Of a DNA stretch of 64,000 nucleotides, positions 1 through 12,932 are shown piece by piece. A model generated the notes under the pieces. That model searched no databases. It was not told the origin of the DNA and worked only from the letters and a program-made list of their open reading frames with translations. Source of the stretch: an uncultured Acidobacteriota bacterium (GTDB lineage: Bacteria > Acidobacteriota > Thermoanaerobaculia > Multivoradales > UBA5704); assembly GCA_963792575.1 (NCBI GenBank), contig CAWBWZ010000020.1, forward strand, positions 935,788-999,787, given 5' to 3'. The translations under genes were made by a program, and so were the position numbers. The first letter of the stretch is position 1. Each line of letters opens with the position of its first letter.

Positions 1-373
1 GCGGCAGCGGGACCGGGTGCTCAAGGCCAACGCCGGGCTCGGCACCCACTGCCTGATCGGCTGGCACTCGATGCTCGTCCGCCCGACCGGCCTGGTGGCA
101 CCCTGCTGCCTGATCCAGGGGGCGGAGTTGGGGAACGTCTACCGGCAGTCGATCCGCGAGATCTGGCACGGCGAGCCGTACAACCGCTTCCGCGCCGAGC
201 TCTCGCGGATCATGCGCGCCCGGATGGCCTGGGAGCACGACCCCGAGACCGATAAGACCGTTACGCCGCTCTGCGGCCCCAAGGGCAACTGTCCGATCGG
301 CAGTTTCTATTACTACCCGGACACCCGCTTCCTCCGTGACTTCGACGCCAGGGTGCGGAGCCTCACCCCATAA
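1..373 (+). CDS. radical SAM / SPASM-domain peptide-modifying enzyme, C-terminal fragment (5' end lies outside the window)
   Basis: Frame is open from base 2. HCLIGWHSMLVRPTGLVAPCC gives C-x12-G-x4-C, matching the SPASM/twitch auxiliary Fe-S signature CX9-15GX4C. A later CGPKGNC pair follows. GC-rich third codon positions. Confidence 0.6.
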   Translation, partial: RQRDRVLKANAGLGTHCLIGWHSMLVRPTGLVAPCCLIQGAELGNVYRQSIREIWHGEPYNRFRAELSRIMRARMAWEHDPETDKTVTPLCGPKGNCPIGSFYYYPDTRFLRDFDARVRSLTP

Positions 374-470
374 TCCGGCCGAGCGGTTGATGGCAAGCCC
401 GGGCTTGAGGCGCGATCGCCGGCTCCGGAGGCACTCTTAGAGGAGAACATCCTCTGGAAGGAGAGATCCC

Positions 471-656
471 ATGAAAAAACACGCCCGCCGGCTCACCCTG
501 AACCGCGAAACACTCCGTCGCCTCGACGAGACGACGCTCCGCAAACTGGAGGGCGGAGTCGTCGCGATCGCGCGGGATACCGAGGAACCGGCCTGCTACT
601 CCCCCTTCTGCGGACCGACCTACTGGAAGACCTGCGAGACCCAGGCCACCGCCTGA
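471..656 (+). CDS. candidate RiPP precursor peptide (GG-type leader plus Cys-containing core)
   Basis: GGAAGGAGAG Shine-Dalgarno just upstream of the ATG. Leader [29 protein letters not shown] fits the K-x-L-x-x-ETL-x-x-L...GG leader pattern. Core [32 protein letters not shown] has 3 Cys. Lies 97 nt downstream of the rSAM/SPASM gene. Confidence 0.5.
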
Positions 657-10250: not shown

Positions 10251-11734
10251 GCCGCACCTTCTTGCCGCCACTCGAAGTCCGCCGCCAAATCGAACAGATC
10301 GGCCATCACCGCCTCGGTCGTGGGCCAGCGTCCGGCGCCATGGGCCGCGATCCTGATCTGGCCTCCACCTTCAAGCTGGACCACCAGGGCGTTGTCCGCG
10401 CCCGCCGTCCACGCGCAGGGGTGGTCCGGCAACAGGACGAGAGGCTGAACGCTGGCCCGCAGCCCACCCTCGGTGCGTTCGCAGGAAGCCACCAGGCGCA
10501 GCCGTCTCCCCCGCCGCGCCGCCTCGGCGGCGGCGCGCTCGTCGAGGTCCGCGATCCCCCGCCGCGGGATGTCTGCCCAGGGCAGGGGAACGCCGAAGGC
10601 TTCCCGGGCGAGAAGCGAGAGCTTCTGCGCCGCGTCCGAGCCGTCGAGATCGAGGGTAGGATCGGCCTCGGCGTAGCCGGCATCGCGGGCCAGCGCTACC
10701 GCCTCGGCGAAGGAGGTGCCGGCCGCGCAGCGGTCGAGAACGAAATTGCAGGTGCCGTTCAGGACCCCGGTGAGCGCCTGGACCCGGCCGGCAGCCGCCG
10801 CCCGCCGCACCGCCTCCAGCGCCGGCAGCGCGCCGCCCACACTGGCGCTGAAACGCAGGGAGACGCCGCGCCGCCGCGCCACTTCCGAAAGGTTTTCCAC
10901 CTCGCCGGCGAGGAGGGCCTTGTTCGCCGTCACCACGTGGCGCCCGCTGTCGAGCGCCCGGGCGATCGATCCATGAGCGGGCTCGCGCCCCCCGAGCAGC
11001 TCCACCACCACGTCGGCCTCGCGCGCCAGCAGCGCCGCGGGATCGTTCGTCAGCAGCCGGCGTGGCACGGCGGGCTCGCGGACGCGGCCGAGGTCCCGCA
11101 CCGCGACCCCGATCACCTGAAAACGTGTGGGGAGGGCGAGGAGACGAGCCAGCACGCCGCCACCCACGGTGCCGCAGCCGAGCAGGGCCACGCGCAGGGG
11201 CGGGCCGGCGACCCCAGGTGGAGCCACGCGGTCCGGACAGGCGGCGCCCAGCTTTGCCGCGAGAAAACGGGCGGTGAGATTCGGACCGATTCGAGTCACG
11301 CGGCCGGCGGGGTCCCGTCCGGCACCGCCGGGGACCACCACGATGGCGCGCTCCAGTTCCTGATGGAGATAGGGGACGTCCACGGCGGCGGGTTCGGCGC
11401 CGAGCCGGTCGTCGCCCTGAGTGACAAGGCCGATCTGGGTGGGATCGAGAAGCGTGGCGGGAAGGCCCGAGCGGTCGAGCGCGAGAGTCAGGAGAGCGGC
11501 CGCGGCCGTCTCACCGGTTCCGAGCAGGGCGGCCAGCCCCTCCCGTTGCGGTGGCAGGCCCAGCTGCTGGGCCCGCTTGAGCAGGTCGTCGGTGGTACAG
11601 CCGAGGGCCGGGACCACCGCCAGGACACGGCGGCCGGCTCGCCACTCGCGATAGATTTCGTGGACGGCGAGCGGCAGATCGGCGTCGGCGCGCGGCGCGG
11701 AGCTGGCGAAATTCAGCACGGAAATCTGATTCAT
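10247..11734 (-). CDS. hom: homoserine dehydrogenase with an N-terminal degenerate aspartokinase-like domain
   Basis: C-terminal 2/3 carries LLGCGTVGGGV (NAD fold), VVTANKALLA and ADPTLDLDGSDAAQKLSLLA. The N-terminal ~170 aa align in pattern to the amino-acid-kinase fold but lack KFGG and GRGGSD. GAGGAGAG SD precedes the start. Confidence 0.8.
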   Translation of the reverse strand: MNQISVLNFASSAPRADADLPLAVHEIYREWRAGRRVLAVVPALGCTTDDLLKRAQQLGLPPQREGLAALLGTGETAAAALLTLALDRSGLPATLLDPTQIGLVTQGDDRLGAEPAAVDVPYLHQELERAIVVVPGGAGRDPAGRVTRIGPNLTARFLAAKLGAACPDRVAPPGVAGPPLRVALLGCGTVGGGVLARLLALPTRFQVIGVAVRDLGRVREPAVPRRLLTNDPAALLAREADVVVELLGGREPAHGSIARALDSGRHVVTANKALLAGEVENLSEVARRRGVSLRFSASVGGALPALEAVRRAAAAGRVQALTGVLNGTCNFVLDRCAAGTSFAEAVALARDAGYAEADPTLDLDGSDAAQKLSLLAREAFGVPLPWADIPRRGIADLDERAAAEAARRGRRLRLVASCERTEGGLRASVQPLVLLPDHPCAWTAGADNALVVQLEGGGQIRIAAHGAGRWPTTEAVMADLFDLAADFEWRQEGAA

Positions 11735-11759
11735 GATTCTCTCCTCTTGATAAAAGCGC

Positions 11760-12932
11760 TCACGCCTCCAGGGCGCGGCGCAGGTCGGCGATGATGTCGT
11801 CGGGGTTTTCGAGCCCGACGGAGATCCGGATCAGGCCGTCGGTGATACCGGTCGCGAGCCGCTGCTCCACCGGCACCGCGGCGTGAGTCATCGAGGCGGG
11901 GTGGGTGACGAGGGTTTCGGCGGCGCCCAGGTTCTCGGCCAGGGCGCAGAGGCGGACGCCGTTCATCACGCGGACGCCGGCCTCCGTCCCGCCCTCGACC
12001 TCGAAGGCCATCAGCGCGCCGCCGCTCCCCTGCTGCCGGCGGGCAAGCTCGTGTTGTGGAAAGGATTCCAACCCGGGATAAAGGATCTTCGTCACCCGCG
12101 GATGACTTTCGAGAAAGCGGGCCACGCGCAGGGCGTTGGCCGAGTGGCGCTCCATGCGCAGCGGCAGCGTCTTCACCCCCTGCAGGGTCAGCCAGGCGTT
12201 GAACGGCGACTGGATGGCCCCGATGGCGTTGCGCAGAAAAGTGAGCTTTTCGTGCAGCTCGGCGTCGCGGGTGATCAGCGCGCCACCCAGGGTGGCGTTG
12301 TGCCCCTCGATGAACTTGGTGGTCGAATGGAGCACGATGTCCGCGCCGAGATCGAGCGGGCGCTGCAGCACCGGCGTCAGTAGCGTGTTGTCCACCACCA
12401 CGACGGCCCCGGCACCGTGGGCGAGCCGCGCGACGGCCTCGATGTCGGTGAGCTTGAGGGTGGGATTGGCGGGCGTCTCGATGAACACCAGGCGCGCCGG
12501 ACGGCGGAGGGACTCCTCCCAGGCGGCCAGATCCGCCGCGTCCACGAACTCGGACTCGACGCCGAATTTGGCGAGGATCTTCTGGAAGAGACGCACGGTG
12601 CCGCCGTAGACCACGTCGGAGAGCACGGCGCGGTCGCCGGCCCGCAGCAGGGCGAGGGCCAGCGCGGCCGTGGCCCCCAGCCCGGTGCCGAAGCAGCTCG
12701 CGTGGTCCGCCCCCTCCAAAGCCGCCAGCCGCCGCTCCAGGGCGCTGACGGTGGGGTTCGCCGTCCGGCTGTAGGTGAACCCCTTGTCGCTCCCCACCGC
12801 CTCCAGCACATAGGTGGTCGACTGATAGATCGGCGTCAGCAGCGCGCCCGTGGCGGGATCGGGATACGCGCCGGCATGGAGGGCGAGCGTATCGAGCGAC
12901 GGATCGGTTTCGAGGCCGAAGGAAATCGTCAT
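11760..12932 (-). CDS. cystathionine gamma-synthase / gamma-lyase family PLP enzyme (first gene of the met operon)
   Basis: YSRTANPTVSALE, DNTLLTP and HSTTKFIEGH motifs. AGGAGA SD before the ATG at 12932 (MTISFG...). Confidence 0.8.
   Translation of the reverse strand: MTISFGLETDPSLDTLALHAGAYPDPATGALLTPIYQSTTYVLEAVGSDKGFTYSRTANPTVSALERRLAALEGADHASCFGTGLGATAALALALLRAGDRAVLSDVVYGGTVRLFQKILAKFGVESEFVDAADLAAWEESLRRPARLVFIETPANPTLKLTDIEAVARLAHGAGAVVVVDNTLLTPVLQRPLDLGADIVLHSTTKFIEGHNATLGGALITRDAELHEKLTFLRNAIGAIQSPFNAWLTLQGVKTLPLRMERHSANALRVARFLESHPRVTKILYPGLESFPQHELARRQQGSGGALMAFEVEGGTEAGVRVMNGVRLCALAENLGAAETLVTHPASMTHAAVPVEQRLATGITDGLIRISVGLENPDDIIADLRRALEA

Follow-up and report, generated by a model that had tools for sequence, protein, structure and literature searches.

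Does a radical S-adenosylmethionine (radical-SAM) enzyme act on the peptide encoded directly behind its gene, or do the two genes only stand side by side? This question is raised by the first 656 positions of the window, by which we mean the whole stretch of 64,000 nucleotides (nt) analysed here, taken from an uncultured soil Acidobacteriota bacterium of the class Thermoanaerobaculia (assembly GCA_963792575.1; 26 contigs, 8.05 Mb; contig CAWBWZ010000020.1, positions 935788-999787). An earlier note, made from the letters of the window, had read the locus as a maturase tail followed by its precursor, that is, as part of a cluster for a ribosomally made and post-translationally modified peptide (RiPP) cut by the window edge. 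Our analysis leans, with somewhat better than even confidence, towards another explanation, in which the peptide is a stand-alone precursor of the class I lanthipeptide type that would be matured in trans, and the radical-SAM enzyme is a neighbour. Contigs of the same assembly are abbreviated below as C2 to C26 (C20 being the contig of the window), and L and G numbers denote the loci and genomes used for comparison. The features at the start of the window are as follows.

2-373, + strand: C-terminal 123 codons and stop codon of the radical-SAM enzyme gene; Pfam SPASM matches this tail with E 3.4e-13
374-470, + strand: spacer of 97 nt from the enzyme stop to the peptide start
430-437, + strand: GGCACTCT box, 34 nt ahead of the peptide ATG
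459-463, + strand: ribosome-binding site AGGAG, 7 nt ahead of the ATG
471-656, + strand: open reading frame (ORF) of the peptide, 61 aa
471-557, + strand: leader, residues 1-29, with an LxLxRx5L motif and a Gly28-Gly29 end
558-656, + strand: core, residues 30-61, and stop codon, with the pairs T37/C42, S44/C47 and T50/C55
667-2237, - strand: convergent gene of a major facilitator superfamily (MFS) transporter, broken into three reading frames

Peptide gene and leader

The 61-aa ORF that begins 97 nt past the maturase tail had been called well initiated, and our results bear this out. In addition to the AGGAG of the window, an alignment of the upstream regions showed that (A)AGGAG is kept at all orthologous peptide loci. 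The peptide family in public data comprised 38 clusters at 90% identity (the window's peptide and 37 others), and the dN/dS values of the window's peptide against 11 orthologues ranged from 0.17 to 0.50, which indicates purifying selection. Because of these 37 other orthologue clusters and the low dN/dS values, we regard the ORF as a real gene.

We compared the peptide with the hidden Markov models (HMMs) of NCBIfam and found that its leader matched NF038153 (lant_leader_L1a) with 25.1 bits (curated cut-off, 22), the sole match at E <= 1. The same model was matched by 37 of the 38 clusters of the family (best E 1.1e-6). The residues of the motif are L8-x-L10-x-R12-x5-L18, followed by G28-G29, with Arg replacing the Lys of the published motif; the LxLxKx5L...GG leader is the type of class I LanA precursors described for Bacteroidetes, in many cases along with a C39 protease (Walker et al. 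2020, PMC7268733). The NCBI label 'class I lanthipeptide' stands on two orthologues, and a search of the literature gave nothing specific to Acidobacteria, either on this leader family or on a library of class I precursors. These results support the earlier view of the small ORF as a RiPP-type precursor with a Gly-Gly leader. They do not support the further claim that the leader is of the kind targeted by radical-SAM enzymes: it belongs to NF038153 instead, and TIGR04149, the model of such targets, gave no match to the window's peptide at E <= 1 and only weak matches to 4 of the 38 family members (best E 0.005). A resemblance to the TIGR04149 leader probably prompted that reading.

Core peptide

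The consensus of the core-type clusters is (D/E)(T/S)-Q-E-x-A-C-Y-S-P-(L/F/W)-C-(G/V/M)-P-T-(Y/F)-W-K-T-C-(E/D)-T. In the 38-cluster alignment S44, P45 and T50 are invariant, C42, C47, P49 and C55 are conserved in at least 90% of the members, and position 37 is Ser or Thr in all 36 core-type members; Thr57 is not conserved. The core thus contains three pairs in which a Ser or Thr precedes a Cys (T37-C42, S44-C47 and T50-C55), a layout that, judged from the alignment, would be expected for three consecutive (methyl)lanthionine rings. The same pattern suits aromatic cross-links, or ranthipeptide links from Cys to a downstream Thr, less well. In particular, the motifs YSP, FCG, YWK and WKT, which had been proposed as cross-link sites, were rejected, since the aromatic residues vary among orthologues (AGTA, AGTV or FGTN stands in place of YWKT in some members) and the Ser, Thr, Cys and Pro residues are constant. 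The core is conserved across genera and has only three Cys, which is unusual beside the hypervariable paralogues described below. This conservation suggests a specific target or function, and makes the peptide a good first candidate for heterologous production.

Two further groups of peptides were seen in the course of this comparison. Leader peptides at L126 (G002 C1:5995849) and L127 (G005 C273:2104) have cores ending in ...SESLCGPTY/FxExC; they share the LCGPT(Y/F) block with the family studied here, hold two or three Cys only, and may be its diverged relatives, with an in-frame TGA in one of them. A second leader-type family, MKKQPK...LVLSKETLSRLEL..VKGGL.R..Q.IVETDTPSECFC, accompanies the peptide at three loci (L114:8226-8372, L115:8227-8373 and L119:10030-10173), at two of them directly downstream and at one past the MFS gene.

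Distribution of the enzyme and the peptide across genomes

The enzyme-centred comparison covered 79 loci from species-representative genomes together with metagenome loci, and for the peptide-centred comparison 10 non-redundant long contexts were read. Paired presence or absence of the A-type enzyme (see below) and the peptide core was sampled in ~20 genomes. The related records came exclusively from metagenome-assembled genomes (MAGs) of Thermoanaerobaculia or other Acidobacteriota; the genomes compared are mostly MAGs, loci related by synteny are non-independent observations, and scoring in the genome search was restricted to the best first-look candidates. The enzyme clades were taken from a quick maximum-likelihood (ML) tree that was not fully searched.

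A profile of the peptide found it beside one enzyme clade only, which we call A-type (14 rows, stem support 100). The earlier note had set conservation of the small ORF beside homologous maturases as a test in advance, and the outcome went largely against it: a peptide gene was nearby in 7/14 A-type rows and in 0/71 of the others, save three tandem B-type paralogues that share their loci with A-type copies. Even near-identical A-type enzymes differ in this respect; two peptide genes are present at L120 and none at L043, where the MFS gene begins 48 nt past the enzyme stop. No orthologue of the core exists in the genomes to which the peptide-less loci belong, two complete chromosomes among them, OY969112 (enzyme 88% identical) and OY970373 (79%). 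In peptide-less genomes the best matches reached 55-67 bits, compared with 116-126 bits for true orthologues, and were peptides of the leader family with other cores. At E <= 1e-5 the peptide/leader profile matched nothing in ten genomes that carry the enzyme and belong to five other families. Within the window's family it mostly gave 4-18 matches per genome, and in one sampled genome it gave none.

The peptide also occurs apart from the enzyme, namely in 3 of the 10 long contexts (L113, L114/L115 and L117/L118). At L113 the order of response regulator, DegV, peptide and MFS genes is kept and the enzyme gene is simply absent, and at L114/L115 and L117/L118 the peptide lies in unrelated neighbourhoods. 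No enzyme homologue was found at 1e-20 in G212, the genome of L118. G108, which belongs to the window's genus and is 100% complete with 1% contamination, likewise lacks an enzyme homologue and carries two tandem peptide orthologues (120 bits each) in a neighbourhood of the L117 type. The peptide core is unchanged in the enzyme-less genomes, each of which holds two LanB genes.

We further analysed the more distant homologues of the enzyme. Using a gene caller based on G+C content at third codon positions (GC3), followed by clustering, we found no other conserved small ORF beside them. What lies next to them depends on the clade: one has HlyD-MacB/FtsX, a second uppS-cdsA-dxr-rseP, and nothing pointed to a shared partner or function. 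Since each of the two genes occurs without the other in related genomes, the radical-SAM gene is most likely a mere neighbour of the peptide gene. The adjacency most likely reflects synteny inherited within one sub-clade, in the order DegV, radical-SAM gene, peptide (where present) and MFS, and no dedicated pair of maturase and substrate.

Tandem enzyme paralogues, A-type beside B-type, were observed in several relatives (L038, L040, L042, L043, L112 and L120/L121). The A-type copies are 77-93% and the B-type copies 61-67% identical to the window's enzyme, and the window's own genome holds an A-type copy only.

The radical-SAM enzyme

We fetched 40 kb of DNA upstream of the window and annotated the proximal 14 kb. 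The full enzyme gene starts at C20:934886, 901 nt ahead of the window, and encodes an intact protein of 424 aa from MSQLGW, or of 433 aa if an upstream TTG is used. The radical-SAM core CxxxCxxC, for which the earlier note had asked to look in this upstream DNA, is present as CNVDCFFC and is invariant among 19 aligned homologues (identity, 55-88%). The full-length protein matched the Pfam families Radical_SAM (6e-16) and SPASM (2e-12), the latter over profile positions 1-53 of 67 only. The first ORF of the window had been described as a SPASM or twitch tail with C-x12-G-x4-C and an extra Cys, and this motif can be read directly (CLIGWHSMLVRPTGLVAPC). The alignment of homologues shows five invariant Cys in the C-terminal domain (C327, C345, C346, C401 and C407 in the 433-aa numbering), arranged as C-x12-G-x4-C-C with two further Cys ~55 residues on; the full seven-Cys SPASM motif for two auxiliary clusters, including CX2CX5CX3C, was not found in it. 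Because the CX2CX5CX3C block is absent, we regard the domain as twitch-like, and matches to NF033640 and BtrN are consistent with this.

None of the NCBIfam models scored above its cut-off for the enzyme; the best was TIGR04317 (116 bits; cut-off, 380), and the models of AlbA, SkfB, StsB and WgkB were far under theirs. There was no Pfam match to a PqqD or RiPP recognition element (RRE) domain in the protein, and no RRE gene among the neighbours. In the AlphaFold model (mean pLDDT 75.7, pTM 0.79) the radical-SAM barrel has only a single helix (residues 20-32) ahead of it, so that the enzyme has no RRE, and the twitch domain comes after an insert of three helices (residues 266-320). The matches in fold and sequence were generic and included the RiPP enzymes SuiB, SkfB and CteB as well as the small-molecule enzymes DesII, BlsE, viperin and MoaA, all with TM scores of ~0.5 or lower. 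Since RiPP and small-molecule enzymes match alike, the fold search does not discriminate between them.

The distribution of the enzyme is patchy. Of 201 genomes sampled across the class, 33 have it, which represent 17 of 80 genera; the four genomes sampled from the window's own family all lack it. It is most likely a separate, patchy family of Thermoanaerobaculia with an ancestral function that does not involve such peptides, and it is older than any association with leader peptides. Among the five SPASM-domain genes of the window's genome, only the enzyme gene studied here has a leader peptide as its neighbour, and the chance of one such adjacency is ~8% (~100 neighbour slots and five genes, with a total of ~6,500 genes assumed by estimate, not counted).

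Precursors and candidate enzymes elsewhere in the genome

The earlier note had recommended a search for paralogous precursors, which proved productive. We found 45 matches to the leader at the protein level and 51 at the HMM level, 23 of them over the curated cut-off, and a scan for the leader motif gave 44 ORFs. The genome therefore encodes ~45-50 paralogues with a common MKK..KL.L.RETL...GG leader and hypervariable cores rich in Cys, Ser and Thr, which are spread over most contigs (for example C26:16127, C20:554438, C4:117553, C23:69509, C2:934212, C6:262534 and C20:467324/468253/468652). The paralogues are mostly remote from any LanB, LanC or LanM gene. One of them (C9:25053) is followed directly by a LanC gene in the same orientation.

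The genes that could serve these precursors are few:

C20:482026-484039 and C22:626190-628151: two LanB dehydratase genes
C20:485426, C23:1015450, C10:101058 and C9:23750 (to 24657): LanC cyclase genes

Two genes with a C39 peptidase were found in addition. All LanB, LanC and C39 genes are remote from the window, the nearest LanB and LanC being ~450 kb away along the contig; none of the LanB or LanC genes lies within the 14 kb upstream or at the start of the window, and no precursor adjoins the LanB/LanC pair at C20:482-487 kb. Two LanB genes were present in 7/7 related genomes tested, among them G212, which has no radical-SAM gene, i.e. in eight genomes when the window's own is counted. An ORF with a repeat similar to that of an upstream protein described below also lies near this LanB locus (C20:478877-479632).

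At least nine precursor genes of the genome have a 5' region of ~60 nt in common, which reads gagCTAGAATgc...GGCCGGGG..GGTCCC.GGCACTAC..GGAGAC-ATG, so that a -10-like TAGAAT stands before a GC-rich hairpin. This region could combine a shared promoter with a structured 5' untranslated region. It lies upstream of the following positions:

C2:375614, C5:254227, C7:329876 and C23:1192263, - strand
C20:467323, C20:468252, C23:1065485, C23:1074530 and C24:16121, + strand

Rfam gave no match at C20:468252 (L032), and the scan possibly covered C24:16121 (L007) too. Near C5:292.3 kb there is an Rfam match to the Acido-Lenti-1 small RNA (sRNA) family (39.9 bits; gathering score, 37; L025:2079-2125, - strand), ~450 nt downstream from a different precursor gene of the leader type.

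Upstream box and transcription

The GGCACTCT box was present 40-75 nt before the ATG in 11 of 12 aligned copies of the peptide gene, including those at the enzyme-less loci L113, L114 and L117, and was missing from the second copy of the tandem pair at L120. It is most simply explained as the peptide gene's own promoter or operator. A sigma-54 promoter was ruled out, since the -12 TTGC element is absent. The box was not found upstream of the other leader peptides of the genome and is thus specific to the subfamily. An Rfam scan of four loci gave no RNA family at the 5' region of the peptide gene. Neither a sigma-70-like promoter nor an intrinsic terminator was detected in the 97-nt spacer, so that read-through from the enzyme gene is possible.

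Neighbouring genes

The 14 kb upstream of the window encode a TIR-TPR protein, a DUF1415 protein, a 430-aa protein, a methyltransferase/TPR protein, a response regulator-DUF4388 protein and a DUF4388-DegV protein. Among them we found neither a protease nor an exporter, and neither an RRE protein nor a second maturase. The protease and the exporter had been expected to the left of the window, and a RiPP cluster continuing upstream is ruled out over these 14 kb.

The response regulator-DUF4388 (PatA_N) gene and the DUF4388-DegV fusion (L004:9300-10805 and 11020-12609; C20:931299-934608) lie directly upstream of the radical-SAM gene; the pair is conserved in the clade and is present also at the enzyme-less locus L113. 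The 430-aa protein (L004:6208-7500; C20:928207-929499), ~6.4 kb upstream of the window, has a repeated, Pro/Ala-rich N-terminal half (...PHVQAA.../...AQAKLP...), and its C-terminal domain matched nothing in Pfam or NCBIfam. The TIR-TPR protein of 895 aa (L004:2571-5258; C20:924570-927257) has a TIR domain at its N terminus, together with a TPR_12/TPR_10 array; a central NB-ARC-like NTPase is indicated by a GGMGKT P-loop only, and the Pfam scan showed no NTPase domain. The protein has the architecture of a STAND (signal transduction ATPases with numerous domains) protein of the defence or signalling type.

On the other side, the MFS gene is indeed convergent, as had been noted earlier; its description as degraded is less certain. 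A tblastn search with the intact 525-aa orthologue from L043 recovered the gene in three pieces, in frames -2, -3 and -1, and in relatives the gene behind the enzyme gene is an intact orthologue of 525-549 aa. The split could mean a disrupted gene, and indel errors of the assembly are another possible cause. Several genes of this genome are split across frames in the same way (MFS, 667-2237; LanB, C20:482026-484039; LanC, C9:23750-24657; C39 exporter, C16:62532-62919), through indel errors of long reads or real decay, so that any gene in it that appears degraded should be treated with caution.

Weighing of the explanations

In the explanation towards which we lean, one of the lineage's two conserved LanB dehydratases would bind the leader and dehydrate Thr37, Ser44 and Thr50. 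A LanC cyclase would then join Cys42, Cys47 and Cys55 to these residues in three consecutive (methyl)lanthionine rings, and an ABC exporter with a C39 peptidase, encoded elsewhere, would cleave after Gly28-Gly29 and export a product of 32 residues. Several points weigh against this explanation. The peptide is adjoined by neither LanB nor LanC, and it is for this leader family in Acidobacteria that we infer their action. It lies within 3 kb of an A-type enzyme in 7 of the 10 contexts (directly downstream in five, past fragments of a dehydrogenase gene in one and beyond the convergent MFS gene in one), usually on the same strand, with a gap of 57-150 nt and no terminator detected. At L120 two enzyme paralogues are followed by two copies of the peptide gene, and the A-type clade stands on a long, fully supported stem branch after a duplication, which would be compatible with a new function having arisen along with the peptide; the tree of the enzyme clades is the quick one described above. 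Several of the comparison genomes are MAGs, in which the apparent absence of a gene could reflect incompleteness. Moreover, since the leader is common to dozens of peptides, an enzyme found without this peptide could act on others, which makes such cases weaker evidence for the independence of the two genes.

If the peptide, with its Gly-Gly leader, is not matured by LanB and LanC, it might leave the cell unmodified and act as a bacteriocin or signal whose thiols are free or bind metal; or it might be modified by enzymes so far unrecognised, on which the entire scattered leader family of Thermoanaerobaculia would rely. We consider this unlikely. It would agree with the lack of an adjacent LanB or LanC gene at this and most of the ~45-50 paralogous loci, and a GMC oxidoreductase acts on lanthipeptide-type precursors in Thermoanaerobaculia, where it forms thiazoles (PMC13083261); the core, however, does not contain the Gly-Cys motif used by that enzyme. 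Furthermore, the conserved positions are exactly Ser/Thr and Cys, with donor before acceptor, the eight genomes examined all share two conserved LanB genes, and one paralogue lies directly upstream of a LanC gene.

Alternatively, the A-type radical-SAM/twitch enzyme might be an accessory that tailors a lanthipeptide-type precursor through the shared leader. This peptide, and perhaps others that carry that leader, would gain a further modification such as a thioether, a C-C cross-link or an epimerisation; lineages without either gene would make an untailored product or tailor other peptides. Such optional tailoring seems to us quite unlikely. Several observations speak for it. In at least six assemblies the two genes adjoin on the same strand, with little space and no terminator between them; both enzyme and peptide are duplicated at L120; among the enzyme clades, only the long-stemmed A-type has the peptide beside it; SuiB, SkfB and CteB are among the closest folds; and some lanthipeptide clusters are known to contain radical-SAM genes (Walker et al. 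2020, PMC7268733). However, whole genomes show each of the two without the other, and the core has the same sequence with or without the enzyme. The enzyme, with five C-terminal Cys only and no RRE, resembles DesII, BlsE, viperin and MoaA equally well in fold, its wider family occurs in genomes that have no such leader peptides, and the peptide gene has its own conserved upstream box. A specific form of this idea, in which one clade of twitch-type enzymes, otherwise unconnected with peptides, was recruited after duplication to the shared lanthipeptide leader as an optional RRE-less tailoring enzyme for the conserved three-Cys core, we rate as improbable; if true, the product would be a hybrid lanthipeptide/radical-SAM peptide, and other members of the precursor library would possibly be modified as well.

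Finally, the locus could be a dedicated two-gene radical-SAM RiPP system in which the enzyme is the sole maturase, the three Cys form thioethers of the sacti- or ranthipeptide type and the other cluster genes lie nearby. This fits the radical-SAM core and the twitch/SPASM-type domain, the adjacent and co-oriented gene, the Ser or Thr two to three residues downstream of each of the three conserved Cys, and the weak TIGR04149 matches in 4 of 38 family members. The leader, however, is of the lanthipeptide L1a type, the seven-Cys SPASM motif is incomplete, and the 14 kb upstream hold no protease, exporter or RRE protein; a link from the third Cys to a downstream Thr would need Thr57, which is not conserved. 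The peptide is fully conserved in genomes that have no enzyme homologue, and the enzyme is retained where the peptide is missing. Judged by these genome comparisons, which already contradict it, this explanation appears largely refuted, and we give it hardly any weight. The result for this locus is thus mainly corrective, in that a pair that looks like a textbook radical-SAM maturase and its precursor is most likely a coincidence of synteny, and genome-mining tools that score adjacency would mis-call it.

Comparison with known systems

The peptide is close in its features to the class I LanA precursors of Bacteroidetes, including the pinensin type (PMC7268733; NF038153). It shares with them the leader motif, the Gly-Gly end, a score above the HMM cut-off and the Ser/Thr donors ahead of Cys acceptors, and LanB, LanC and a C39 protease/exporter are encoded in its genome. 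It differs in its host, an acidobacterium of the Thermoanaerobaculia, in the Arg that replaces the Lys of the motif, and in that it is known here from sequence alone; furthermore, no LanB, LanC or C39 gene is clustered with the precursor, which is solitary and has an upstream box to itself.

The pair of genes also recalls AlbA/SboA, SkfB/SkfA, CteB/CteA and SuiB/SuiA, which likewise combine a radical-SAM core and a C-terminal Fe-S domain of the twitch/SPASM type with a gene for a small Cys-containing peptide immediately downstream. The best fold matches of the window's enzyme include SuiB, SkfB and CteB (TM ~0.5), equalled by BlsE, DesII, MoaA and viperin. Unlike these maturases, the enzyme has no RRE, five conserved C-terminal Cys instead of seven and no match to a family HMM, and unlike in these pairs, the precursor is not kept beside the enzyme homologues and the two genes dissociate across genomes. 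The Bacteroidetes precursors of TIGR04149 (GG_sam_targ_CFB) have a similar-looking MKK...L.L.K..L...GG leader; in contrast to them, the window's peptide does not match that HMM, and 37/38 of its family match the lanthipeptide leader model.

In marine cyanobacteria, the class II lanthipeptide systems prochlorosin/ProcM and SyncA/SyncM rely on one promiscuous synthetase for many scattered precursors with a shared leader. The genome studied here is similar in that dozens of precursors with a shared leader and hypervariable cores lie far from a few synthetase genes. It differs in that the leader family is another one and that the enzymes would be of class I, with separate LanB and LanC and no LanM; the relation of one enzyme to many substrates is, for this genome, one that we infer. 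The ~45-50 stand-alone precursors, two LanB, few LanC and two C39 genes would then form a class I counterpart of the prochlorosin design of one enzyme and many substrates.

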